Shown here: positions 218 to 52,988 of the stretch, piece by piece | How the letters are laid out: the number at the start of each line of letters is the position of its first letter | Numbering within the stretch: position 1 is the first letter of the stretch | Source: Deltaproteobacteria bacterium | GTDB lineage: Bacteria; Myxococcota; Kuafuiibacteriia; Kuafuiibacteriales; Kuafuiibacteriaceae | NCBI GenBank assembly: GCA_040218735.1 | Contig: JAVJQW010000050.1 | Span: forward strand, 288,001 to 352,000 | Direction of reading: 5' to 3' | Length of the DNA stretch: 64,000 nt | Program-made: the position numbers and the translations under genes | Notes under the pieces: generated by a model | What the model saw: the letters and a program-made list of their open reading frames with translations, nothing else | What the model was told of the DNA's origin: nothing | Database searches by the model: none

Positions 218-3200
218 ATGGCGAGCGGATCCACCAGACCAGCGCAGCTCGGCGGCGACAACGTCATCCGCTTCCTCGACTGCGCACATTTCCTCCAGGA
301 GCTCGCCGGGAACCTCGGTCGAGGACGTGCCCTCGTGCGCACGCGCCGGAGCTTCGAGCTGGGCGAGCGCTTCACCGTGGACGTCGAGGCGCCGGGGGTG
401 GCGTGGCGCGTCGAGGTCGACGTGCGCGTCGTCTTCTCCCGCAGCGGGTTCGTCGGTCTGGAGCTCGAGCGCTTCGACGAGGCGCTCTCCGCGCTGGATC
501 GGCTCGGGGAGGCCGCAGAGCGCGCGGACGACGACGTCGAGGACGAACGACCGCCCGTACCTACCGCGCCCGGGCCGGCCGTGCTCAGCGCCGAGAAGAC
601 CCTCGTCGCCCCCAACCCGGTGATGAACCTCGGCGATGCGTTCACGCCGCTGGGCGATCCACCGCGGACCGGCGAGGCGCAGATCCACATCCGCGAGGAG
701 GACGAAGCCGAGACCGGTGAGTTCCCCATCCTCCCCGGTGATCCCGTCCCGGATCCCGCGGAGACCGGATCCGTGCGGGTGCCCAACCGCGCGGCGACGA
801 TCGTCGAGACCGACCTCGTCGCCGCACCGCCGACGAACCGGCGACGACGCCCGCGGGTCTCGACACCCCCGGAGCGCGGCCTCTCGGATCCCGCGCCCGG
901 CGGTCGGCCGCGCCCCCGGGATCGGATCGACACTTCGACGCAGGACTCGGTCGACATCCCGACCGGTGACGTCCCGGATCCCGCGGAGCACGCGACGCGT
1001 TCGTTGCCGGCCGCGCGACCGGACGCGCCGGCGGCGCCGTCGTCTCGACCCGACGTCCCCATGGCGCCCTCGCTCGCGCTCGACACGAGCGTGCCCATCG
1101 CCCCGTCGCGCAGCGCGCCGCCGCCGGACAGCACCACGGTCGCGTCGGAGAGCTCACGTCCTCGCGCCGCGACCGTGCAGGCGCGGACGGAGTCGCTGTC
1201 GAACTACGAGATCCCTCCGCCGGAGCTCGGCGGATCGGCGATCGTGATGAACCCGCTGCTCGAGGCCGCGCCGGCGGAGGCCACCGCCGACGACGTCGAC
1301 GCGCGCATCATGGAGCCGCCATCGGCGGACGCGGACGTCACGTCCGACGACGTCGACGCTCAAGCCCCGACCCCTGAGGCGACGCCGACGCCCGCGCCGA
1401 GCCTCTCGGACGACCTCGACCTCGACGTGCCGAGCCTCCCCGCGCCCGACGCGGTCCCCGTCGACAACCTCGAAGCGCTCGAGGACGACGACGTGCGGCT
1501 CCCGCGGGTGACCGAGGATGGCCGGGTCGATCTCGCGGACCCCGCGGACCTGCTCGCGCTCTACCTCGGCCAGATTCGGCACGGCACGCTGACGCTCTAC
1601 GGGTCGCTGACCAAGGACGCCGGCGACACGGTGCGGCTCACCATCGAGGGCCCCAACGCGGTCGAGATCGAGGCCCTCGTGATGGCGCGCGTGGGGCCGT
1701 GGTTCACGTTCGCCGTGCCGGACCCTCGCCCGGTCGAGGCCGTGTTGAGCGCGAACGTCGTCCATTGGAAAGAATCCATTGAAGCGCTCGCCGAGAACTA
1801 CCTCGAGGAGAGCGACGAACGGCGCCGCGAAATCGCCGAGCCGGAGCCCGAGCCGTCGCTCGAGGAGAGCGCGACGGCGGACGACTCCGCGCCGCCCCCG
1901 CCCGAGGACCCGATCGTCCCGCCGCCGCCGATCGAGGTGACCGCGGACGACGTCGAGGAGGAGGAGCCGGTGGTCCTCGTTCCGGCGGCGCCCCCGGAGC
2001 CGGAGCCGGAGCCCGAGCCCGAACCCGAGCCGGAGCCCGAGCCCGAGCCGGAACCGGAGCCCGAGCCCGAGGGGGATCCGGATCGCGCGCCGCGCGTGCC
2101 GAAGCTCGACGGGACGAACGTGCGCTTCGATCACACGATCGATCTCGAGCACGAGCTGAAGGTGAACCTCGCGAACGGCGGGCTGTTCGTCGAGGCGGCC
2201 CCCATCCCGATCCGCGAGCGGCGGCGCCTGAAGATCCACATCGGCGACAAACCCACCGGCGTCACCATCGAAGCCGACGTCGTGTTCGCGAGCGGCGGCA
2301 AGGTCGGCTTCTCCGTCCCCGCGTCGGCCGAGGCGCAGACCCAGCTGGAGGAGTACCTCCGCACCGGGACCGCGCAGCCCAGCTCCACGCCGCTGCCGAG
2401 TGAGTCCCCGGTGCCCACCTCCGGGACCCCCGAGCCGCTCCCGCCCGAGCGCGAGGCCTCGGTCGGTGGCGCCTTCGGTGGTGACCTCCTCGCGCCGCTG
2501 TCGATCTCCCAGATCCTCGGGCTGGAGCAGAAACGCGCGTCGTCGACCGCGGACCTCGAGAAGACCTCGGCGGTGCAGCTGATCGAGTACCTCGTCCGTC
2601 AGGGCGAAAAGGGTGTGCTCATGATCCGCGGCCCGCAGCGCACCCAGACGATCTGGTTCCACGGCGGCAGCGTCGCGTACATCCTCGACGAGCCCTTCGA
2701 CGAGGCCACGAGCCTCGGCCGCGTCCTCATCACCCAAAAGAAGCTCAACGACGCCGCGCTGCGCGAGGGCCTCGAGAAGGCGAAGGCGAGCAAGAAGCCC
2801 CTCGGCCGCACGCTCGTCCTCCTCGGCACGATTCGAAAAGCGGAGCTCACCGCGGCGCTCCGCGAGCAGGCGCGCCTCAAGATGGACTACACGTTCGCGA
2901 CGAAGTCCGGGCACTTCGAGTTCGGCCCCTGGCAGGAGCCGCCCGGCAACGCCGACCTCGTCGTGACCAAGGGCCTCGGTCTCCTCGCGCGGTACCTCCG
3001 CAGCCGCTACGACGAGTACAACTACCAAGAGCTCGAAGCGATCTTCGGCGCCAACATGAACCGGCGCGTCGAGCACGAGACCGACTTCGAGAGCATCGCG
3101 ACGAGCCTTCAACTCCAACCCAAGGAGCTTCGATTCCTCGAGCTGTCCCTCGACGGCCACCGTACGATCCACGACGCGGTCCTCGGCAGCCCCGCCGGTC

Positions 3201-3760
3201 GCCTCGGCTCACTCCGCCTGGTCGGCATGTGCCTCAGCATGGCGCTGATCCGCTTCTCGGACGGCAACGCCGTTCGGCGCGAGAAGACGCAGGTCGGCCG
3301 CGAGCCGAGCGCCTTCGTCCGCGTGAAGAACGAGCTGGACGAACGCCTCACGCTGCTCGAGGGCATGAACCACTTCGAGGTGCTCGGCGTGCACTGGTCC
3401 GCGCACCACCGCAACTACCGCGAGGCCTACGACAACGCGAAGCGCGAGTTCAACCTGCGCCGCTCGCCCTACAAGGACGCGCCGGACGACGTGAAGAAGA
3501 AGGTCCAGCGCATCGTGCAGATCCTCGACCAGAGCTACACGACCCTCAACGACGCCACCCAGCGCGTCTCCTACCGCAAGCAGCTCTTCGACAAGACCGA
3601 ACGCCAGTACGCCGCCGAGATGCTCGTGAAGCAGGGCGAGGTCGCGCTCATGCGCGGCGACCGCGTCGGCGCCATCGAAGCCCTGGAGACCGCGGTCGAG
3701 CTCGACCCCTCGACCCGCAACCGCAACCTCCTCATGAGCGCCCGCGAAGGCCGCCGGTAG
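218..3760 (+). CDS. Multidomain protein: PilZ-like domains, Pro/acidic linkers, DUF4388/MshEN-like region, J-like domain lacking HPD, C-terminal TPR-like helix
   Basis: PilZ-like segments (NLGRGRALV..VVFSRSGFVGLE; NLANGGLFV..VVFASGGKVGFS); DUF4388-like GVLMIRG..TIWFHGGSVAYI..SLGRVL; J-like NHFEVLGV..YREAY..SYTTLND..R..Y. Confidence 0.75.
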   Translation: MASGSTRPAQLGGDNVIRFLDCAHFLQELAGNLGRGRALVRTRRSFELGERFTVDVEAPGVAWRVEVDVRVVFSRSGFVGLELERFDEALSALDRLGEAAERADDDVEDERPPVPTAPGPAVLSAEKTLVAPNPVMNLGDAFTPLGDPPRTGEAQIHIREEDEAETGEFPILPGDPVPDPAETGSVRVPNRAATIVETDLVAAPPTNRRRRPRVSTPPERGLSDPAPGGRPRPRDRIDTSTQDSVDIPTGDVPDPAEHATRSLPAARPDAPAAPSSRPDVPMAPSLALDTSVPIAPSRSAPPPDSTTVASESSRPRAATVQARTESLSNYEIPPPELGGSAIVMNPLLEAAPAEATADDVDARIMEPPSADADVTSDDVDAQAPTPEATPTPAPSLSDDLDLDVPSLPAPDAVPVDNLEALEDDDVRLPRVTEDGRVDLADPADLLALYLGQIRHGTLTLYGSLTKDAGDTVRLTIEGPNAVEIEALVMARVGPWFTFAVPDPRPVEAVLSANVVHWKESIEALAENYLEESDERRREIAEPEPEPSLEESATADDSAPPPPEDPIVPPPPIEVTADDVEEEEPVVLVPAAPPEPEPEPEPEPEPEPEPEPEPEPEPEGDPDRAPRVPKLDGTNVRFDHTIDLEHELKVNLANGGLFVEAAPIPIRERRRLKIHIGDKPTGVTIEADVVFASGGKVGFSVPASAEAQTQLEEYLRTGTAQPSSTPLPSESPVPTSGTPEPLPPEREASVGGAFGGDLLAPLSISQILGLEQKRASSTADLEKTSAVQLIEYLVRQGEKGVLMIRGPQRTQTIWFHGGSVAYILDEPFDEATSLGRVLITQKKLNDAALREGLEKAKASKKPLGRTLVLLGTIRKAELTAALREQARLKMDYTFATKSGHFEFGPWQEPPGNADLVVTKGLGLLARYLRSRYDEYNYQELEAIFGANMNRRVEHETDFESIATSLQLQPKELRFLELSLDGHRTIHDAVLGSPAGRLGSLRLVGMCLSMALIRFSDGNAVRREKTQVGREPSAFVRVKNELDERLTLLEGMNHFEVLGVHWSAHHRNYREAYDNAKREFNLRRSPYKDAPDDVKKKVQRIVQILDQSYTTLNDATQRVSYRKQLFDKTERQYAAEMLVKQGEVALMRGDRVGAIEALETAVELDPSTRNRNLLMSAREGRR
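1994..2071 (+). repeat. (CCS GAR)x13 coding repeat encoding a (Pro-Glu)13 spacer
   Basis: ccggag/cccgag/cccgaa/ccggaa units read directly. Confidence 0.9.
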
Positions 3761-3785
3761 CCCACGGCGCCCGACATTCCCTCCG

Positions 3786-5420
3786 CTACAGCTGCGCGAG
3801 CAGGGACGTCTCGAACCACCCGCTCGTGTCGCCCTTCACGGCGTCCTGCAGCGACTCGCCGTACATCGCCTCGTAGGCCTTGGCCGTGGCCGCCAGCTGG
3901 CCCTTGCTCCGCTTCCCGAGGATCCGGATCAACGCCGCCTCGTCCGTGCCCCACCCGTCGATCGCCTGGTGCAGCGCGACGGCGTCGCGCGTCGCCTGGG
4001 CCTGGTCCACGGTGCCGCTCTCGTCGCGGTTCCCGCTCGCGAGCGTGAGGAGCATCGTCTCGAGGTCGCCGCTCGTGTCGCCCTTGATCGCGTCGTCGAG
4101 CGACTCCCCGAACATCTCCTGGTACGCCGAGCGAATCGCGCGGATCTCCCGGTTCGTCCGGTTCGAGAGCACGTCGATCAGCTTCTGCTCGTCCGTGCCC
4201 AGCCCGTCGATCGCCTCGTGCAGCGCAACCGCATCGCGCGTCGCCTTGCCCTTGTCGACCCGCGGCGCACCGCCGGCCGTCATCTGCCCCTGCAGTCGCC
4301 CGTTCGAGCGGCGCGCCGCGAGCTCGGCGCGCAGGTCGACGCGCTTCGGCGCCGCCTTCTTCGGCGCGGTGTCCGCGCGCTTGAGCTGCGCCAGCAGCGA
4401 GTCCTCGAAGTCACCGCTGGTGTCGCCCTTGATCGCGTCCTCCAGCGACTCGCCGTACATCTCCTGGTACGCCTTCGCGATCGCCTTCAGCTGCGGGCCG
4501 CTCCGTCCGCTGATGATGCGGTTGAGCGTCGCCTCGTCGGTGCCCCACCCGTCCATCGCCTCGTGCAGCGCCGCCGCGTCGCGCGTGGCCGCGTTCTCGT
4601 CGACCTTCCCCGACTCGTCCCGGTTTCCGCGGAGCATCGACAAGAGTGAGTCCTCGAAGTCACCGCTGGTGTCGCCCTTGATCGCGTCCTCCAGCGACTC
4701 GCCGTACATCTCCTGGTACGCCGCCTTGATCGCGTTGATCTGCGTGTTGCTGCGGCCGCTGAGGATGCGCGTCAGCGCGGCCTCGTCCGTGCCCCACCCG
4801 TCCATCGCCTGGTGCAGCGCGACGGCGTCGCGGGTCGCCTGCGCCTGGTCCGCCTTCTGCGCGACCTTCGCTTGCTGCGCCTGCGCGGCGACGGGGATCG
4901 GCGCCGCGCGCACCGCGGGGCGCTGCGCCGGCGCGCGGCTCGGCGCCTGACGCTGGTACAGCTGCGCGAGGCGATCGAAGTCGACCGCGCCCTGCCCGCC
5001 GATCGACTGGTAGAACGGTTGGTAGAACTGCGCCGCGGTGATCAGCTGCGTCAGCATCTCGGCCGCCGCCTGCGCCGTGCGCGGGTCGACGCCGAACGCG
5101 ATGAAGAACCGCGCGAAGTCGGTGGTGTCGAGCGCGCCGAGGCGCGGGTCGTAGAACGGGATCTGCTGATTCGGACGCGGCGCTCGACCGCGGAGGTCGC
5201 GCGCGATGGCGTCGCCGAGCGGGGCCGCCTCGATCTGATCGAAGCCGGACTGCGTGAGGATTACGACGTAGTGCTGGCGCTCGGCTTCGGAGCCACCCAT
5301 GCGAATGCGCAGGTCGTCGGCGCGCGCGGGGGAGCCGGCCAGGCGCGCGTTCGCGGCGGAGTGGCTGGAGCGGGCGTGGACGCTGCGAGGGTTGAGTGCG
5401 GTGTGCGTTTCGATGGCCAT
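3786..5420 (-). CDS. Annexin-family protein with four annexin repeats and a ~195-aa N-terminal region
   Basis: Four G[WL]GTDE..Y..M[YF]GESL.DA[IV]KGDTSG repeats; GxGT-X38-D spacing counted in repeat 1; AGGAGG RBS 4 nt upstream of ATG. Confidence 0.92.
   Translation of the reverse strand: MAIETHTALNPRSVHARSSHSAANARLAGSPARADDLRIRMGGSEAERQHYVVILTQSGFDQIEAAPLGDAIARDLRGRAPRPNQQIPFYDPRLGALDTTDFARFFIAFGVDPRTAQAAAEMLTQLITAAQFYQPFYQSIGGQGAVDFDRLAQLYQRQAPSRAPAQRPAVRAAPIPVAAQAQQAKVAQKADQAQATRDAVALHQAMDGWGTDEAALTRILSGRSNTQINAIKAAYQEMYGESLEDAIKGDTSGDFEDSLLSMLRGNRDESGKVDENAATRDAAALHEAMDGWGTDEATLNRIISGRSGPQLKAIAKAYQEMYGESLEDAIKGDTSGDFEDSLLAQLKRADTAPKKAAPKRVDLRAELAARRSNGRLQGQMTAGGAPRVDKGKATRDAVALHEAIDGLGTDEQKLIDVLSNRTNREIRAIRSAYQEMFGESLDDAIKGDTSGDLETMLLTLASGNRDESGTVDQAQATRDAVALHQAIDGWGTDEAALIRILGKRSKGQLAATAKAYEAMYGESLQDAVKGDTSGWFETSLLAQL
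4399..4722 (-). repeat. 75-bp identical direct repeat (4399-4473 and 4648-4722) between annexin repeats 2 and 1
   Basis: gagtcctcgaagtcaccgctgg...ctcctggtacgcc occurs twice, period 249 bp (83 aa). Confidence 0.85.
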
Positions 5421-5451
5421 GAATCCTCCTGGATGGTGTGCCCGATGCCTT

Positions 5452-5467
5452 TACAAGGTCCGGGCCA
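5452..5467 (-). promoter_or_regulatory. Putative sigma54 (-24/-12) promoter of the annexin gene
   Basis: Minus strand TGGCCCG-GACC-TTGTA vs consensus TGGCACG-N4-TTGCW (GT rather than GC at -12); adjacent to a sigma54 activator gene. Confidence 0.6.
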
Positions 5468-5630
5468 AGCCGCAGGAGGACGCGCGGCGACGCTCGAGAT
5501 CCCCGGTCGGGAGCCCTCTAGGGATCGCGGGGGCTCCCGAATTGGGAACCCCTGCGCGACAGCGTGGTCGGCGTGGGCGGCACCCCTCCACCGCCGGTCC
5601 ACAGCGCGCGGCGAGGTGCCATCGCCTGCT

Positions 5631-7367
5631 ATGTTAGTGCCGTTGAGCTTCGAGACGTTACCGCCGACCGAGCGCGCGCCGGTGTCGGCCGAGCGCAAGA
5701 CGGACGCTCCGCTCTCCCTGCTCGTCATCGTCGAGGAGGGCGTGTCGACGCACCCGCTGACGGTGGGAATGCAGCTGTCGATCGGGCGTGAGCCCACCGT
5801 CGACGTCCACGTCGACGATCCGCTCGTCTCCCGCGAGCACGCGCGCCTGTACGTGCGCGACATCGTCGAGCTCGAAGATCTGGGGAGCGCCAACGGCACG
5901 AAGATCCGCGGGCAGCGCGTCGTCGCGCACGAGAAGACGCCGATAGGCGCCGGGCAGGTCGTGGAGATCGGCTCGGCGATCCTCGTGCTGCAGGAGCAGA
6001 GCACGGTCGCCCGGAGACGCCGCCTGTGGTCCCACGGCTACTTCGAGGTTCGCCTCGAAGAGGAGTGCGCGCGCAACGCACGCGGGCGTCGTTCGCCGTT
6101 CGCCGTGCTGCGCGTGCGCGTCGACGCCGCGGACGACGAGACGCTCGTGCAAGACACGTTGACGAAGGCGCTCCGCTCCTCGGACGTCGTCGCGAGCTAC
6201 GCCCCCGGTGAGTACGAGCTGCTCCTCGTCGACACCGCCGCGTCGCGCGCGGAGCGCATCGCCGATCGCATCTCGGACCGCTTCGTCGAGGCCGGCCACC
6301 GCATCGAGATCGGCATCGCGTCGTTCCCCCGCGATGGCCTCACCGCGGACGCGCTGATCGCCCACGCGGGGATCGACCTCGCGCTCGACGAAGACACGGC
6401 GCCCTCCTCGGCCGCGGTCGTCGAGGACCCGGCGATGGTCGATCTGTACCGCGTCGTCGATCGCGTCGCGCAGGGGACGATCAGCGTCCTGCTCGTCGGC
6501 GAGACCGGCGTCGGCAAGGAGGTCGTCGCCGAGGCGCTGCACCGCCGCTCACCGCGCGTCGACGCCCCGTTCGTGCGCCTCAACTGCGCCGCGCTCACGC
6601 AGACCCTCGTGGAGTCGGAGCTGTTCGGCCACGTCCGCGGCGCGTTCACCGGCGCCGAACAAGACAAACGCGGCCTGATCGAAGCCGCCGACGGCGGCAC
6701 GGTGTTCCTCGACGAGGTCGGCGAGCTCCCGCTGCCCACGCAAGCTACCTTGCTCCGCGTCCTCGAGCGCCGCGAGGTCCAGCGCGTGGGGAGCCTGGAG
6801 CCGCGCCCGGTCGACGTGCGCTTTGTCTCCGCCACGAACCGCGACCTCGAGGAGGAGATCGCGCGCGGGCGTTTCCGCGAGGATCTCTTCTACCGCCTCA
6901 ACGGCGTCACCATCGCGATCCCTCCGCTCCGCGATCGCCCCGGGGAGATCACATTGCTCGCGAGGATGTTCGTGGATCGCGTCAGCCACGAGCTCGGCGT
7001 GGAGGCCCCCGCGCTCTCCACGCGCGCCGAAGCGCTCCTCGGCGGCTACCACTGGCCGGGCAACATCCGCGAGCTCCGCAACATGATCGAGCGCGCGGTC
7101 CTGCTCTGCACGGGAGACGTCCTCGACGCTGAGCACCTCCCCGTCGACAAACTCTCCGCGACCTGGTCGAGCACTCCCGCGCGCCCTCGCCGACCGCGTG
7201 CGACGTCGGCGAGCCCGGAGCACGACGAGCGCAAACAGCGCATCCTCGACGCGCTGGACGCCTGCGCCGGCAACCAGACCCGCGCCGCCGAACACCTCGG
7301 CGTCTCCCGACGCACGCTCACGAAGTGGCTCGGCCGCTACGACATCCCCCGGCCCCGCAAACGCTGA
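5631..7367 (+). CDS. Sigma54-dependent transcriptional activator: FHA + degenerate GGDEF-like + AAA+ + Fis-type HTH
   Basis: FHA GR..SREH..GSANGT; GETGVGKE, ESELFGH..GAFTGA, FLDEVGE, FREDLFYRL, WPGNIRELRN; GNQTRAAEHLG. Start is a best guess inside ORF 4812..7367. Confidence 0.93.
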   Translation: MLVPLSFETLPPTERAPVSAERKTDAPLSLLVIVEEGVSTHPLTVGMQLSIGREPTVDVHVDDPLVSREHARLYVRDIVELEDLGSANGTKIRGQRVVAHEKTPIGAGQVVEIGSAILVLQEQSTVARRRRLWSHGYFEVRLEEECARNARGRRSPFAVLRVRVDAADDETLVQDTLTKALRSSDVVASYAPGEYELLLVDTAASRAERIADRISDRFVEAGHRIEIGIASFPRDGLTADALIAHAGIDLALDEDTAPSSAAVVEDPAMVDLYRVVDRVAQGTISVLLVGETGVGKEVVAEALHRRSPRVDAPFVRLNCAALTQTLVESELFGHVRGAFTGAEQDKRGLIEAADGGTVFLDEVGELPLPTQATLLRVLERREVQRVGSLEPRPVDVRFVSATNRDLEEEIARGRFREDLFYRLNGVTIAIPPLRDRPGEITLLARMFVDRVSHELGVEAPALSTRAEALLGGYHWPGNIRELRNMIERAVLLCTGDVLDAEHLPVDKLSATWSSTPARPRRPRATSASPEHDERKQRILDALDACAGNQTRAAEHLGVSRRTLTKWLGRYDIPRPRKR

Positions 7368-7383
7368 GGTATGATCGCCGCGC

Positions 7384-8715
7384 GTGCGGCGCTTCGGTGA
7401 GTTCGCGCTGCTCGAGCGCCTCGAGCAGGGATCGGGCGGGACGGTCCACCTCGCCCGTCGCATCGGCGCGCCCCAGGACCACGACCCGCTCCTCGTGGTG
7501 AAGCGCCTCCACTCGGACCTCATGGAGCACGACACCTTCGTGCGCCGCTTCTCCCACGAAGCGCTGATCGCGGTGTCGGTGAAGAGCCCGAACGTCGTGG
7601 TCGTCGAGGACGTCGGGCGCGTGGGCGACGAGCCGTACATCGCGATGCACTTCGTGGAGGGGCTGTCGCTGTACGAAGTGCTCGAGCGCGTCACCGCCGC
7701 GGGCTACGGCATCCCGCTCGACGTCACCGTCGCGATCGTCGCGGGGTGCCTGGGCGGCCTCCGCGCGCTGCACGACGCCATCCACCCGGACACCCTCGAA
7801 CCCCTCGGCGTGGTCCACCGCGACATCTCCCCGAAGAACATCGTGCTCGCGTTCGACGGGCACCCCGTGCTGATCGATCTGGGCCTCGGGAAGTCGAATG
7901 TCGCCGACTGGCAGACCGCGGCCGGCGACGTCCTCGGGTCCCTCGGCTACATGGCGCCCGAGCAGGTCCTCGGCGACCGCGTCGATCACCGCGCGGATCT
8001 GTTCTCGCTGAGCGCCGTGTTCTACGAGCTGCTCACGCTCGAGCCGTACGTCCCGCGCGGCGCGCGGCGCGACATGCTGCGGCGGATGGAGTCGCCGCCC
8101 CCGGCCCGCCTCGACCGCGAAGACGTGCCGATGCCGATCCGCGCCCTCCTCGAGTCGGGCCTGTCCTACGACCCGAACCAGCGCCCGGCGAGCGCCGCGG
8201 AGATGTACGATCGGCTCACCTCGGTCATCGCCCCCGCGACACCGAAGCTCGTGGCCGCGTTCGTCCGTGACCTCGTCGGCGAAGACCTGCGCTCGACCGC
8301 GAAGAACGTCGACGACCTGAAGTCGCAGCCGATCGCGTTCCCCGACGACACCCCCTACGAAGGCACGGTGGTGATCGCGCGACGCGAGTCCGCGGTGAAC
8401 ACCATCGACGACCTCGAACCCGAGAGCGACGACCCGACCGCGCTCGTCGTCGCCCACGATCGCCCCAAGATCGCGGACGCCACGCTGCGTGCGCCGCCCG
8501 ACACCGTCCTCGGAGACGACACCGACAGCCTCCTGCAGGCGCAGACCCGTATCACGGCACGGCCGCGAGCGACCGGAGTACCGTGGGCGGTCGTGCTGCT
8601 GTTGATGGTGCTCGTGGCGGCCGCGACGGTGTTCGTGGATCGCTTCGTCATCGGCGTCGAAGCGCCGGCGCCGACCGCCGAGCCTCCGCCCACCGTCTCC
8701 GCGACGCCGCGGTGA
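7384..8715 (+). CDS. Hanks-type Ser/Thr protein kinase with C-terminal TM helix
   Basis: VVKRL, HRDISPKN, DLG, GSLGYMAPE, DLFSL; TM WAVVLLLMVLVAAATVFV. Confidence 0.92.
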   Translation: MRRFGEFALLERLEQGSGGTVHLARRIGAPQDHDPLLVVKRLHSDLMEHDTFVRRFSHEALIAVSVKSPNVVVVEDVGRVGDEPYIAMHFVEGLSLYEVLERVTAAGYGIPLDVTVAIVAGCLGGLRALHDAIHPDTLEPLGVVHRDISPKNIVLAFDGHPVLIDLGLGKSNVADWQTAAGDVLGSLGYMAPEQVLGDRVDHRADLFSLSAVFYELLTLEPYVPRGARRDMLRRMESPPPARLDREDVPMPIRALLESGLSYDPNQRPASAAEMYDRLTSVIAPATPKLVAAFVRDLVGEDLRSTAKNVDDLKSQPIAFPDDTPYEGTVVIARRESAVNTIDDLEPESDDPTALVVAHDRPKIADATLRAPPDTVLGDDTDSLLQAQTRITARPRATGVPWAVVLLLMVLVAAATVFVDRFVIGVEAPAPTAEPPPTVSATPR

Positions 8716-8719
8716 AGCG

Positions 8720-9481
8720 TCACATCCCGGACTCGCCGGACTTCTTCATGGTGTTGGTCTGCACCATCTCGCTCTCGAGCTCGGCGACGCGCTGCTTGGC
8801 CTTCTTCGCCTGGTCGGGCGACGGGCGCCCGGCGAGCACGTCGTTCCACGCTTCGAGCTTCGTCTGACGATCGATGCGCGCGATTTTGTCGACGGACATC
8901 GCCTCCGTGTAGAGCTGCTTCTGGAGGTCGTTGATCCGCTTCAGCGCCGCGCGAGCCTCCGGCCCCTTCGCGACCCAAGTCAGCACCTGCTCCCACGCGC
9001 GGATGCGATCCACCTTGGGTTTGCGAGCGCGCTCGACGCCCTCCGCCTCGGCGACGAGCCGCTTGGTCTCCATCGAGGTCCAGTGCGCGACGCGCTGCTT
9101 CGCCTTCCGTGCTTCCTTGCTCTTCGGGTAGAGGTCCCTAACCTCCGTCCACTTCGTGATCTTGTCGCGCGGTGACAGGTCGTCGTCGGAGTCGGCGCGT
9201 GTCGCGGCGTCGACGACGCGCAGGCGCGCCGCGTTCTTCCAGCGATCCATCGCGCGCTTCGCGTAGCCGATCTGCTCCTGCGCGCGATCGATGAAGGCCT
9301 TCCACTCGCGGAGCTTCTCTTCGTCGGAGACCTCCGGATCCTGTTCGAGCTTGCGCAGCCCGTAGAAGGTCAGGACGGTGCCCGGCTTCTTGACGACCTT
9401 CTTGGCGTCGCCGTCTTCGCCGGCGGCCAGCGCCGGCGTGGCGATCGCGAGGCTCAGCGCGATGACGAGCGTTCGATTCAT
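8720..9481 (-). CDS. Secreted helical-repeat hypothetical protein
   Basis: Signal peptide ending PALA; AAGGAG RBS; four K[LI]xxW-type repeats. Confidence 0.75.
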   Translation of the reverse strand: MNRTLVIALSLAIATPALAAGEDGDAKKVVKKPGTVLTFYGLRKLEQDPEVSDEEKLREWKAFIDRAQEQIGYAKRAMDRWKNAARLRVVDAATRADSDDDLSPRDKITKWTEVRDLYPKSKEARKAKQRVAHWTSMETKRLVAEAEGVERARKPKVDRIRAWEQVLTWVAKGPEARAALKRINDLQKQLYTEAMSVDKIARIDRQTKLEAWNDVLAGRPSPDQAKKAKQRVAELESEMVQTNTMKKSGESGM

Positions 9482-9483
9482 GT

Positions 9484-9957
9484 TCACTCCTTGGGGCCGC
9501 GGAACGAGAAGTTCGGCTGGAACATGATGAACCCGTCCGGCTTCTTGGCCTGGGGTTCCTTCGGCTTCTCATTCGGCCCGGGGATGTAGAACTTGCCTTC
9601 GACCCCGACGGGGATCTTCAGCGAGAACTCCTGGTCGACCTTGTTGGGCCGCGGGAACTTCCAGCGCTTCGCGACGCTCTCCAGACACAGCCGGAGGTGA
9701 CGCGCGCCCTCCAGCGAGGTGTCGATGCGTGTCTTGGTGACCGCGCCCGACTCGCCCACCTTCACGACCACCGTGGCGACACCCTGCGTCTTCGGGTTTT
9801 CGTTGTGGTAGCGCGCGTTGCACGCGTCGATCGCCGGCCCGGTGGCGTTGAGCGTGCTGCGCACCTTCTCCATGGCCTGCTCCTTGGTCATGACCTCTTC
9901 GGCCGGAGGTTCGGCCGCGACGAGCGCGAGCGTGACGAGCAAGGCGGAAGCGTTCAC
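9484..9957 (-). CDS. AgmX/PglI C-terminal (TonB-C-like) domain protein
   Basis: AIDACNARY..NPKTQGVATVVVKVGESGAV..LRLCLESVAKRWKFPRP; GTGA overlap with upstream gene. Confidence 0.75.
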   Translation of the reverse strand: MNASALLVTLALVAAEPPAEEVMTKEQAMEKVRSTLNATGPAIDACNARYHNENPKTQGVATVVVKVGESGAVTKTRIDTSLEGARHLRLCLESVAKRWKFPRPNKVDQEFSLKIPVGVEGKFYIPGPNEKPKEPQAKKPDGFIMFQPNFSFRGPKE

Positions 9958-15527: not shown

Positions 15528-15543
15528 AGCAACGCGCGTGCCA
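15528..15543 (-). promoter_or_regulatory. Consensus sigma54 promoter
   Basis: TGGCACG-CGCG-TTGCT, a perfect match, 14 nt upstream of ATG 15513. Confidence 0.8.
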
Positions 15544-15616
15544 CGAACCCCCGCAGAGCTCTCCTCGGGCCGCGCGACAGAATGTCCGAGCGGAAGACGC
15601 CGCGCCTGTCACGCCG

Positions 15617-51500: not shown

Positions 51501-52988
51501 TCATCGACACGTCGCGTTCGGCAACGGATCTCCCGGGGTCGGTACACACCACGCGAAGCGCCCGTCGGCGTCCCGCGCAATCGCTTCGTGCCAGACGTCC
51601 GGCGGCGACCCGCCCTCGTGGTCGCCCGATTCTCCCGCGCCGATCGTGACGCGATCGAGGAGCGTCGAGCCGCTCCACAGCTCCACCGTCAGATCGCGCT
51701 GCGACATGTCCCCGCGCGGACGCACGACGAGCGCCTCCCCCGGCCACCACGCACGGAGGTTGCCGCCGTCGCCGAAGTAGAGCGCCGGAGCGCCGTCGAC
51801 CTTCGTGATCGCGGGCGTGCGATCGATCGTCCTGAGCTCCAACCCTGCCGAGAGCAACGACACCGGTTCGGCGGAGTCGTTCACGATCTCGATCCACTCG
51901 TCCGTGCTCGTGATCGCGCCGTTCCCGGGGCGGGCGTCGAAGGGCACCGCGCCCCCCGCGCTGTCGCTCCAGTCGTGCAGCGCCGTCGAGACGACCTCCG
52001 TGATGTGCGCGCGCGTCGCCGCCGGGAACCCGACCTCGAACCGAATCGGAGGCGCGAGGTTCCCGGCGAGATCCGACACCACCACATGCACGGCGAGCTG
52101 CGCTCCACCGGCGATGTGCCCCTGCGATGTCAACCTGACTTGCCGACCCGCGACCGGGTGCGAAGCGAGCGGCGTCGACGTCCCGGCTGCGTCCACCGCG
52201 GTGCCGCTGACGACGACCGGTTCATCGGCATCCACGTCCACCAAGAGCGAGTCCCCGTCGATCGCCACGCGCGTCGAAGTGACGACGGGCGGGATCGAAT
52301 CCACGACCGTGGAGGTCTGCACGACCGACGTCGCCGGGTCACCGGGCGCCACGGCATCGTGGGTCAACGCGAGCCGATACGTCGTCGAGGGCGTCAACGC
52401 ACCTTGCACGTCGAACACCACGGCGCCCTCATGTTCACGCGACGCCACCAACGCGACCCGCTCTAGGGCGGGTCCTTCGAGGAACGCCGCGCCGATCGGG
52501 GACGGCAGCGGCGGCGACGAAGCCACCGCGACGTGGCGCAGGTTCACGGGCGCGGGCTCCGTCGGCGTCGGCTCGCGCACCACGGCGCGCGGATTGGGGA
52601 GCGTCCCCTCCGACGTGGTGAAACGGAACGGCTCCGTCGGCGGCGCGACGGTGCGTCCATCGTCGGTCACGAAGTCCGTCCCGAGCGAGACGAACAACGC
52701 CTCGCCGGCTGGCCAAGTCGTGTCCGGAGCGACCACGAGCTCGTCACCCGAGTCTGCCGGCGTCGCGACGAACCGAACCGGGCGTCCGTCGGCGCGAACG
52801 ATGGACAGCGTCCCCATGTTCACCGCCTCCGAGAAGCCGAGGCGAACCGACGCCTCCGGCGGGACGTCGGTGTCCGGCGCGACGCCGAGCGCAAACGGGA
52901 CGAACTCGGGGTCGGTGAGGGGCTGAGGGGCTTCGAGGCAACCGGCGACGACGAGCGCCGCCGAACAAATGAGGTTTCGATCGATCAT
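51501..52988 (-). CDS. Lipoprotein with Ig-like domains and C-terminal lamin-tail-like domain
   Basis: VAGC lipobox; LGFSEAV (Big_5-like); DLAGN; ITEVV..DEWIEIVN..PTPG. Confidence 0.7.
   Translation of the reverse strand: MIDRNLICSAALVVAGCLEAPQPLTDPEFVPFALGVAPDTDVPPEASVRLGFSEAVNMGTLSIVRADGRPVRFVATPADSGDELVVAPDTTWPAGEALFVSLGTDFVTDDGRTVAPPTEPFRFTTSEGTLPNPRAVVREPTPTEPAPVNLRHVAVASSPPLPSPIGAAFLEGPALERVALVASREHEGAVVFDVQGALTPSTTYRLALTHDAVAPGDPATSVVQTSTVVDSIPPVVTSTRVAIDGDSLLVDVDADEPVVVSGTAVDAAGTSTPLASHPVAGRQVRLTSQGHIAGGAQLAVHVVVSDLAGNLAPPIRFEVGFPAATRAHITEVVSTALHDWSDSAGGAVPFDARPGNGAITSTDEWIEIVNDSAEPVSLLSAGLELRTIDRTPAITKVDGAPALYFGDGGNLRAWWPGEALVVRPRGDMSQRDLTVELWSGSTLLDRVTIGAGESGDHEGGSPPDVWHEAIARDADGRFAWCVPTPGDPLPNATCR

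Follow-up and report, generated by a model that had tools for sequence, protein, structure and literature searches.

Among the genes of a 64,000-nucleotide stretch of DNA from a deltaproteobacterium of the phylum Myxococcota (contig JAVJQW010000050.1 of assembly GCA_040218735.1, positions 288,001 to 352,000; hereafter the window, whose own numbering is used for coordinates) is one whose 544-residue product, as judged from its sequence, is an annexin with four intact type II Ca2+ motifs. What sets this protein apart is, on present comparisons, its canonicity and not the fact that it is bacterial. Its repeats are arranged as two tandem modules, each resembling the second and third repeats (II-III) of the eukaryotic annexin core; they are preceded by a predicted, lineage-specific folded domain; and the gene belongs to a block of three genes that only the window's genus has at this locus and whose other two members suggest a regulatory chain leading to a sigma-54-type promoter (Table 1).

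An annexin gene in a bacterial chromosome

A Pfam search of the 544-residue protein returned four stretches of the annexin family PF00191 (E 9.8e-102; 333.5 bits in total against a cut-off of 25), and a six-frame search with the same profile across the whole source genome (G000; 11.6 Mb in 70 contigs) scored the individual repeats at 79.1-94.4 bits each and detected no second annexin gene elsewhere in it. With phmmer, the protein matched annexin VI at E 3.3e-90 and 77 PDB sequences at E<=0.001. This signal is far beyond chance, and it bears out the four annexin repeats with G[WL]GTDE and KGDTSG motifs that a preliminary description, made from the letters of the window, had proposed. The G[WL]GTDE motifs start at residues 208, 291, 406 and 489 and the KGDTSG motifs at residues 248, 331, 446 and 529, leaving exactly 38 residues between the T of GxGT and the D of KGD in each case; the classical GxGT-38-D spacing, previously noted for the first repeat, therefore holds for all four. 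Among 10 homologs, the G/G/T/D/E columns of the G-x-G-T-D-E motif are invariant or at least 90% conserved. Given its family membership and the intact motifs under selection, the protein quite probably binds both Ca2+ and membranes.

Does the gene truly belong to the bacterium in whose assembly it was found? Its GC content (~0.71) and its GC content at third codon positions (GC3; 0.95-0.97, compared with 0.90-0.94 in neighbouring genes) are host-like, the identical protein occurs on three contigs, the longest of which measures 11.5 Mb, and in a second genome of the same genus (G001, with which record L021 is 100% identical in DNA) the annexin is encoded between the same flanking genes, collinear and 87% and 83% identical. 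Near-identical DNA was further encountered in the runs of 10 studies; when contigs from four of these were compared with the window, those from three (X2, X3 and X5, metagenomes of sponge, aquaculture and biofloc origin) ran across both gene junctions and differed from the window by ~1%, which disposes of the chimeric contig or contamination against which the preliminary description had cautioned. The ratio of nonsynonymous to synonymous substitution rates (dN/dS) between the window gene and its L021 ortholog is 0.28 overall, 0.27 for the N-terminal domain, 0.23-0.25 for the repeats and 0.32-0.36 for the linkers, i.e. the gene is under purifying selection. Contamination, a chimeric contig and a pseudogene are thus ruled out by GC3, synteny, bridging contigs and dN/dS, and, because the repeats are in addition fused to a bacterial N-terminal domain, the annexin is to be taken as what these data make it, a real, vertically inherited chromosomal gene.

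Neither a signal peptide nor a transmembrane segment was detected in the protein by simple hydropathy (the maximal Kyte-Doolittle mean over 19 residues is 0.83), and the lack of a Sec signal noted earlier is confirmed by a maximum of only 0.22 over 10 residues within the first 40. A toxin or enzymatic domain was likewise not found in it with Pfam, PADLOC or PHROGs.

Two tandem II-III modules and their relatives

Eukaryotic annexins (e.g. A6, PDB 1avc/1m9i; A7, 8w5s; A13, 6b3i; A3, 1axn; B12, 1aei; as well as A5 and A4) are built from the same five-helix PF00191 repeats with GxGT-38-D/E sites, and they share with the window protein the length and motif of the II-III linker and a variable N-terminal region ahead of the core; even in profile score, the window repeats (83 bits on average) are comparable with those of two animal A6-like proteins (~75-77 bits). 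Unlike the eukaryotic proteins, however, the window annexin consists of near-copies closest to repeat II, keeps all four Ca2+ sites, carries a bacterial N-terminal domain predicted to fold and is encoded in a bacterial regulatory cassette. Its repeats, R1 to R4, are 59-81% identical to one another (R1-R2, 81%), whereas the repeats within 15 eukaryotic eight-repeat annexins, chosen by name among 153 hit-list proteins with a clean eight-repeat pattern, share 31% on average (range 21-55%). The spacing of 14 residues that separates R1 from R2, and R3 from R4, equals the eukaryotic II-III gap and is unlike the I-II (~3) and III-IV (~9) gaps. Smith-Waterman scores of the two window pairs against eukaryotic pairs point the same way (277/253 for II-III, 229/219 for I-II and 199/172 for III-IV), and every single window repeat is closest to eukaryotic type II (41-46% identity). 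The text of the linkers, which start at residues 265 and 463 and read GNRDESG[KT]VD...ATRDA, is close to that found in the mollusc Mya (AGRDESGSVD), the insect Psylliodes (GGRDESSQVD) and an A6-like protein (ANRDESSEYD).

By these comparisons, the layout is (II-III)-46 residues-(II-III) and not the I-II-III-IV tetrad of distinct repeats. The preliminary description had correctly recognised two pairs joined by such linkers and separated by a basic insert (46 residues with 13 K/R against 4 D/E, its length differing among orthologs). Its likening of the linker to the animal II-III linker also stands as far as the type is concerned, given the 14-residue length and the pair scores; annexin A11, which it had named as an example, was not singled out and is one of many PDB matches. 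The eukaryote-type four-repeat core that it had envisaged, on the other hand, gives way to near-copies of a single type arranged as (II-III)x2.

Several observations indicate that gene conversion or unequal crossing-over continues to homogenise the repeats. A stretch of 75 nucleotides is perfectly identical in R1 and R2, whose synonymous divergence (dS) is 0.34, as against 0.46-0.56 for the other repeat pairs; metagenome assemblies break at R1-R2, and one contig ‘goes back 249 nt’, which equals one repeat period; three repeats are present in the same-genus ortholog (L021/P0003) and in P0004, a 98%-identical fragment, for both of which assembly collapse may be the cause; and in the repeat tree the 12 repeats of orthologs P0005, P0006 and P0009 form a starred clade of their own, apart from the repeats of the window protein and P0002. 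Repeat trees in general cluster by protein and not by eukaryotic type, and their 72 columns are too short to place the window family.

An AlphaFold2 model of the full-length protein, built on a 10-sequence alignment, has a mean predicted local distance difference test score (pLDDT) of 68.9 and a predicted template modelling score (pTM) of 0.33. Each repeat is modelled as five helices at pLDDT 70-89, in keeping with the five-helix fold of annexin repeats, and residues 1-43, 159-190 and 350-386 fall below pLDDT 50, so that the model is modular with three low-confidence linkers. Foldseek retrieved annexins at E ~1e-15 over ~350 columns, but with a root-mean-square deviation (rmsd) of ~19 A and a target-normalised template modelling score of 0.23-0.25; VIA-align reached Z 24.2 with 8w5s_A (rmsd 10.8 A, 223 residues aligned) and Z 24.0 with 1mcx (rmsd 7.2 A, 227 aligned), and of an ESM Atlas model (pTM 0.38) 176 of 350 residues could be superposed. 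The repeats are therefore predicted to adopt annexin folds, while a canonical disc is not confidently predicted. The best rigid VIA-align fits (~225-230 residues at ~7 A) place model residues 272-544, that is R2-R3-R4, onto repeats I-III (residues ~10-240) of annexins A1, A2, A4, A5 and B12. With R2 in the place of I, R3 of II and R4 of III, R1 would come to lie at position IV, so that these fits hint, and only hint, at a circularly permuted pseudo-tetrad. Such an arrangement would fit the pseudo-twofold that relates the I/IV and II/III modules of annexins.

How exceptional is an annexin in a bacterium? Kodavali et al. (2014; PMC3894181) describe 34 bacterial annexins from 17 species, Myxococcales included, with 1-5 repeats and a patchy distribution; in their description the bacterial domains are remote from eukaryotic annexins and cluster apart from them, and fusions to toxin domains are reported. 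Later papers still term bacterial annexins rare; in a 2024 review the class AnxF stays ‘in abeyance’, and a 2023 paper (PMC10569963) points out that no bacterial annexin had been purified or deleted and that none had been biochemically characterised. Our search of the literature on bacterial and prokaryotic annexins found nothing on the present subfamily. Genomes correct this picture of rarity: of 301 genomes sampled from the window's phylum, 65 (about one in five) contain PF00191, as do 26 of 137 genera, and two narrow peptide patterns, applied to contigs of one genome per species, yielded 153 annexin stretches confirmed by tblastn, most of them multi-repeat. The 80 loci that were kept stem from Myxococcota, Vulcanimicrobiota, Melainabacteria, Cyanobacteriota, Chloroflexota, Actinomycetota, Pseudomonadota and Bacteroidota, and their open reading frames (ORFs) encode 1-9 repeats, often within proteins of 500-3,265 residues. 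The earlier view that bacterial annexins are rare and mostly single-repeat can thus not be upheld, all the less so as the set of Kodavali et al. already ranged up to five repeats. Nor is a four-repeat bacterial annexin new in itself, since there are four-repeat orthologs (P0002, P0005, P0006 and P0009) as well as proteins of ‘Candidatus Xenobiia’ that NCBI already names ‘annexin’.

Where the window protein does stand out is in its closeness to the annexins of animals. Its repeats score 79-94 bits, compared with at most 66 bits for any repeat outside its genus in the 301 genomes of the phylum; over a pair, its identity with animal annexins amounts to 38-50%, as opposed to 25-38% with most of the other bacterial ones; and, beyond a few bacterial orthologs, its top database matches are animal annexins, with up to 50% identity (Mya arenaria). 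Although it has in common with the set of Kodavali et al. (2014) that annexin repeats reside in bacterial genomes, those of Myxococcales among them, its phmmer E value of 3e-90 to annexin VI contrasts with domains that their account calls remote. Of 61 other bacterial linkers, 10 matched a loose pattern of the II-III linker, the true motif being found in orthologs of the window protein only; the motif is essentially limited to the window family and its 2+2 relatives.

These relatives, i.e. P0005, P0006 and P0009, the Xenobiia proteins P0024, P0106, P0107 and P0111, and two large paralogs (L101 and L102), resemble the window annexin in having two pairs, II-III-like linkers and a variable spacer. 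P0005 and P0006 also share its N-terminal domain (42-44% overall identity), whereas in the Xenobiia proteins the N-terminus is rich in Q/M and the spacer is long and P/T-rich, and L101 and L102 begin with ~500-650 unrelated residues. The latter two (898-3507, minus strand, and 2006-4972, plus strand, of their records; 869-988 residues) represent a second annexin subfamily of related genomes with the same 2+2 layout; their N-terminal part is devoid of Pfam domains, a Q-rich segment recalls the Xenobiia N-termini, and the AB loop is expanded in the second repeat of each pair. Elsewhere, a metagenome-assembled genome of Gastranaerophilales, a gut melainabacterium (L022), encodes two adjacent annexins, one of 2 and one of 4 repeats, and proteins of Sphingomonas (L027, 2894-5491) and Laspinema (L050, 3677-6748) join 4-5 annexin repeats to an eCIS_core domain at the N-terminus, the former ending in addition in an Aspzincin_M35 peptidase; in these, the repeats look like modules of likely injected effectors.

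The relation to eukaryotes was approached with trees of repeat pairs, for which 6-8 animal and protist proteins were named from hit lists, fungi, plants and Amoebozoa being left out. A split made up of the 16 II-III pairs of eukaryotes, without any bacterial pair, is supported by an ultrafast bootstrap (UFBoot) of 96 and an SH-aLRT of 90 and recurs in 95% of bootstrap trees. When the window family is constrained to group with the II-III pairs of metazoans, 43.7 log-likelihood units are lost (approximately unbiased test, p-AU 0.043); the test does not reject a constraint that joins the bacterial 2+2 family to the eukaryotic II-III pairs as a whole (p-AU 0.35), and the best tree groups all bacterial pairs with a support of only 24. 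As far as these pairs go, a recent transfer of the gene from animals is disfavoured.

The N-terminal domain and the three-gene cassette

The first ~195 residues, left without assignment in the preliminary description, have stayed so: Pfam gives no match for the N-terminal 194 residues even at E<=10. An exhaustive phmmer search of 1.84 billion representatives returned only 17 proteins at E<=0.001, comprising annexin orthologs, standalone proteins of 144-270 residues, one repetitive S-layer protein that is likely spurious, and P0130, a metagenomic protein of 629 residues in which the N-domain module (residues 185-269) is followed by a C-terminal TGL (protein-glutamine gamma-glutamyltransferase) domain. 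With the whole annexin as query, matches to residues 80-187 are confined to the window's own taxonomic family. The source genome and eight of its relatives encode a standalone paralog, one per genome in the family and with a basic tail; in G000 as well as in G006, a genome of another genus, the paralog adjoins rpsD, and the housekeeping and signalling genes around it offer no functional clue. Seven positions of the domain are invariant (R82, P88, G110, P113, Y133, G141 and L151).

Modelled by AlphaFold2 on its own alignment, the domain reaches pTM 0.62, with a core (residues 41-160) at pLDDT 79-96 that is all-alpha apart from a small hairpin. Against the PDB, Foldseek found nothing at E<=0.001 (best 0.47), and VIA-align, run over 48,161 representative chains, found one at Z>=5 (Z 5.2, rmsd 2.5 A over 60 residues) but nothing that reached Z>=8; a top score of Z 5.2 stays under what helical models usually give as noise, which does not in itself prove a new fold. 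A profile search of the PDB gave a best E of 0.012 with no aligned stretch, PADLOC and PHROGs gave sub-threshold noise only, a word-based search for short homologs found none, and feature and structure searches of the ESM Atlas produced nothing usable. An identity with eCIS_core was considered and rejected: PF13699 is absent at E<=1 for the whole protein and at E<=10 for the N-domain, and the hhalign probability against the eCIS_core region of the Laspinema protein (L050) is 0.1%. The models and searches together present the N-domain as an undescribed, confidently folding family without a known relative in sequence or structure.

The annexin gene is monocistronic, being convergent with the gene of a 1,180-residue DUF4388 protein and divergent from that of an activator with FHA, sigma-54 AAA+ and HTH domains, which is followed by a Ser/Thr kinase gene. 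Orthologs of the DUF4388 gene, one per genome, are found in 20 of 20 genomes of the family, and the 7.2 kb downstream of it were compared in five other genera (two more loci ran off their contigs). In three of these (G006, G011 and G003) the DUF4388 gene is followed within ~13-76 nucleotides by the ortholog of a 255-residue gene that occupies 8720-9487 of the window, and then by RluA; in G004 it is followed by 2.6 kb of other DNA, and G008 differs. At that locus, none of the five genera has a match to the annexin, the activator or the kinase. Because its flanks adjoin in three of the five, the segment 3761-8719 is, at this locus, a block of three genes peculiar to the window's genus; its base composition is the same as that of the flanks, and it contains no secretion-system genes by Pfam. 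Within the genome, which also contains rpoN, 21 paralog matches to the activator were counted; beyond the genus, the relatives closest to it reach only 46-48% identity over the N-terminal 260 residues. The DUF4388 protein itself (218-3760, plus strand) carries long acidic PE/EP repeats and a J-domain-like/TPR-like C-terminus.

Of the intergenic region, the 60 nucleotides before the annexin ATG are near-identical in L021 and the remainder has diverged. This block holds a conserved sigma-54-like element, 31-32 nucleotides ahead of the start codon (Table 1), which makes the annexin promoter a candidate of the sigma-54 type; matches to the consensus YTGGCACGRNNNTTGCW with up to two mismatches number 2 in the whole window against 1.69 expected, and ~0.003 would be expected for the 210-nucleotide strand in which the element lies. 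A palindrome lies ~25-90 nucleotides upstream of the element in the window and in L021 alike. The element TTGGCCCGGACCTTGTA recurs nowhere else in the genome, where no regulon was found, and a pattern scan of 3600-5800 detected neither a sigma-70 promoter nor a terminator. The only zero-mismatch match in the window, a perfect TGGCAC-N5-TTGC core (GTGGCACGCGCGTTGCT), is located at 15528-15544 on the minus strand. Rfam gave no match in the window, and the sole tRNA call there is an unusually long tRNA-Ala(GGC) of 96 nucleotides (52525-52620, plus strand).

The closest paralog of the activator (56% identical), found in G006 (L197, G006:C1, 529-3207), likewise has a kinase homolog next to it. The divergent target of this paralogous cassette is a 268-residue gene with a PG_binding_1 domain (40.4 bits) and without a hydrophobic N-terminus; TCGGCCCGCCGATTGCT stands 30 nucleotides before its ATG and is followed by ACACCAGGAGGA, the window counterpart standing at 31 nucleotides with ACACCATCCAGGAGGA. 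The sigma-54-like promoter and the 5' untranslated region of this target are thus laid out as in the annexin gene. Homology of the MxIE N-terminus common to the annexin and this target was rejected, as the likeness ends after ~5 residues. As an analogy only, pspF-pspA also pairs a sigma-54 activator with the divergent gene of a membrane-stress effector, a peripheral membrane-binding protein, as does the annexin cassette with its -24/-12-type element; PspA, however, is not homologous to annexin, and the window activator differs in receiving its input through an FHA domain and in having a Ser/Thr kinase as partner.

Table 1. Features of the annexin gene and its surroundings (window coordinates, except for the standalone paralog, which is numbered within its own record)
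Feature	Coordinates	Strand	Basis
Three-gene cassette (annexin, activator, kinase), ~5 kb	3761..8719	.	Flanks adjacent in other genera; present in G000 and G001
Annexin gene, 544 aa + stop	3786..5420	-	ORF with ATG start; PF00191 x4; dN/dS 0.28 vs same-genus ortholog
N-terminal tail, aa 1-43, begins MAIET, hydrophilic	5292..5420	-	pLDDT <50; without hydrophobic core
All-alpha N-domain core (predicted), aa 40-155, lineage-specific	4956..5303	-	No Pfam match; AlphaFold2 pTM 0.62, pLDDT 79-96
P/A/Q-rich linker, aa 156-194, predicted disordered	4839..4955	-	pLDDT <50 for aa 159-190; dN/dS 0.32
Repeat R1, aa 195-263, GWGT...D250	4632..4838	-	Motif and repeat comparison
14-aa II-III-type linker R1-R2, GNRDESGKVDENA	4590..4631	-	Motif, spacing, pair comparison
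Repeat R2, aa 278-346, GWGT...D333	4383..4589	-	81% identical to R1
46-aa basic insert between pairs, aa 347-392, predicted disordered	4245..4382	-	pLDDT <50 for aa 350-386
Repeat R3, aa 393-461, GLGT...D448	4038..4244	-	Motif and repeat comparison
14-aa II-III-type linker R3-R4, GNRDESGTVDQAQ	3996..4037	-	Motif, pair comparison
Repeat R4, aa 476-544, GWGT...D531	3789..3995	-	Motif and repeat comparison
Shine-Dalgarno AGGAGG, 4 nt before ATG	5425..5430	-	Sequence; conserved in L021
Sigma-54-like -24/-12 element TTGGCCCGGACCTTGTA, 31 nt before ATG	5452..5468	-	Two mismatches to YTGGCACGRNNNTTGCW; inside ~60-nt conserved block
Inverted repeat/palindrome, GGGCTCCCGAATTGGGAACCCC region, candidate activator-binding site	5491..5556	.	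Sequence; similar palindrome in L021
Divergent activator, FHA + sigma-54 AAA+ + HTH_8	5631..7367	+	Pfam; GAFTGA at aa 337; 87% identical in L021
Ser/Thr protein kinase, 16 nt after activator stop	7384..8715	+	Pkinase; HRDISPKN loop; C-terminal transmembrane helix, Kyte-Doolittle 2.58 at aa 400-418
Standalone N-domain paralog, 179 aa, basic C-terminal tail	L013 (= G000:C18) 627-1166	-	Conserved in eight relatives

Possible roles of the protein

What might a protein of this kind do for its bacterium? It could well be an inducible, cytoplasmic, Ca2+-triggered membrane binder that acts at the inner leaflet under the control of the kinase, the FHA activator and sigma-54, an account that is the best supported of those considered and that we put forward tentatively. 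The membrane-anchored Ser/Thr kinase would sense a signal, be it from the envelope or developmental; by way of phospho-threonine signalling to its FHA domain, the sigma-54 activator would then be turned on and would fire the divergent sigma-54-type promoter, letting annexin build up in the cytoplasm. A rise in Ca2+ along the inside of the cytoplasmic membrane, for instance by leakage through damage, might serve as the trigger upon which the Ca2+ loops of the repeats, with their Trp/Leu tips, and the basic tether bind anionic phospholipids, so that the two flexibly linked modules would patch, cross-link or stiffen the membrane much as eukaryotic annexins do in membrane repair. The domain identity, the motifs, the modular model, the structure of the cassette, the promoter-like element and the purifying selection are seen in the data, and from them we infer Ca2+ and lipid binding, cytoplasmic location, the regulatory chain and the physiological role. 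The account as a whole fits the absence of export signals from the protein, the envelope bias of sigma-54 regulons, which Francke (2011) describes as tied to the cell exterior, and the activity of a mammalian annexin inside Escherichia coli, where, according to the account in PMC10569963, bovine annexin A4 acts on membranes; sigma-54 control in particular is suggested by motifs and synteny.

A number of points nevertheless weigh against this account. The -12 part of TTGGCCCGGACCTTGTA reads TTGT and not the near-invariant TTGC, and neither a simple sigma-54 core pattern (30 matches in the window against 41.7 expected) nor an extended one is enriched, so that only the position and the conservation of the element carry weight. 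The logic of the cassette is seen in one genus and one paralogous cassette, other activator paralogs (L200-L203) being laid out differently, and the arrangement of the two modules relative to each other is modelled without confidence (pTM 0.33; Foldseek rmsd ~19 A). Finally, other bacterial annexin-repeat proteins resemble injected effectors, as their eCIS_core and M35 peptidase domains suggest, and the G006 target, with its peptidoglycan-binding domain, must act outside the cytoplasm, which makes export of the annexin by another route possible as well.

The main rival account has the protein exported. Could it, then, be an effector that leaves the cell by a non-Sec route (in vesicles, through a contractile injection system or by lysis during predation) and binds prey or host membranes where Ca2+ is high, its N-domain serving as a trafficking or adaptor module? 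Two of the eight other bacterial annexin proteins scanned have an N-terminal eCIS_core domain, one of them with Aspzincin_M35 besides, and toxin-domain fusions feature in the description by Kodavali et al. (2014; PMC3894181). Two large eCIS_core ORFs lie elsewhere in the window's genome (G000:C9:518345-518563 and 551298-551486; the open frames comprise 1,667 and 1,622 residues and are ~33 kb apart), which therefore probably encodes a contractile injection system or its cargo. The fusion of the N-domain to TGL in P0130 is what a swappable adaptor would predict, the peptidoglycan-binding protein driven by the paralogous cassette of G006 also lacks a hydrophobic N-terminus, and DNA nearly identical to that of the window turns up in metagenomes of sponges, aquaculture and biofloc. 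Against all this, the N-domain is unrelated to eCIS_core, the protein has no signal peptide and no toxin or enzymatic domain, the cassette has no secretion-system genes, and the standalone N-domain paralog sits beside rpsD and housekeeping and signalling genes in two genomes, all of which renders export unlikely. Somewhat less likely still is that the protein acts as a scaffold, structural or developmental, whose functional part would be the N-domain (in the envelope, a spore coat or a protein hub), while the repeats would be a Ca2+ tether or would bind polysaccharide or nucleic acid. This would agree with an N-domain as constrained as the repeats (dN/dS 0.27), with its retention as a small, basic-tailed protein, one per genome in the family, and with the fusion to TGL in P0130. 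TGL is a spore-coat cross-linker in Bacillus, and FHA-domain sigma-54 activators are prominent in myxobacterial development. For Myxococcus xanthus, 53 sigma-54 activators are given by Francke (2011). The scaffold is hard to reconcile with four Ca2+/membrane loops that are all intact under purifying selection and whose Trp/Leu tips are the lipid-binding signature of characterised annexins.

In favour of a recent eukaryotic origin, be it by contamination, a chimeric contig or transfer from an animal such as a sponge or mollusc host, one might cite the animal annexins that head the database matches behind a few bacterial orthologs (Mya arenaria foremost), a II-III linker motif that is shared with animals and rare in other bacterial annexins, and the DNA from sponge metagenomes. 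Yet the GC and GC3 values are those of the host, the Shine-Dalgarno sequence and promoter are bacterial, the repeats are fused to a bacteria-specific N-domain, the identical protein lies on an 11.5-Mb contig, with synteny in a second genome and independent bridging contigs, and the eukaryotic II-III split excludes the bacterial pairs (UFBoot 96 / SH-aLRT 90) while the forced metazoan grouping has a p-AU of 0.043; such an origin is therefore extremely improbable.

What is the significance of a bacterial annexin of this form? Multi-repeat annexins of bacteria were known before; new here are the canonical (II-III)x2 form, the N-domain family and the context of a sigma-54 cassette. As canonical as an animal annexin, small, soluble-looking, modular and part of a simple three-gene cassette, the protein offers, by virtue of these features, a bacterial model in which to ask how a two-repeat module acts at a membrane, how old Ca2+-triggered membrane repair is in comparison with eukaryotes, and how such a protein is induced. 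A bolder proposal, which we consider improbable yet worth stating, is that the family is the closest surviving relative of the two-repeat ancestor of the eukaryotic II/III half-core (or else an ancient capture), that its modules form the permuted pseudo-tetrad on membranes (R1-R2-R3-R4 corresponding to IV-I-II-III), and that the cassette is a Ca2+ membrane-repair system switched by kinase, FHA domain and sigma-54, with the N-domain as an adaptor of new fold. If this were true, annexin-type membrane repair, and with it the annexin half-core, would be placed in bacteria.

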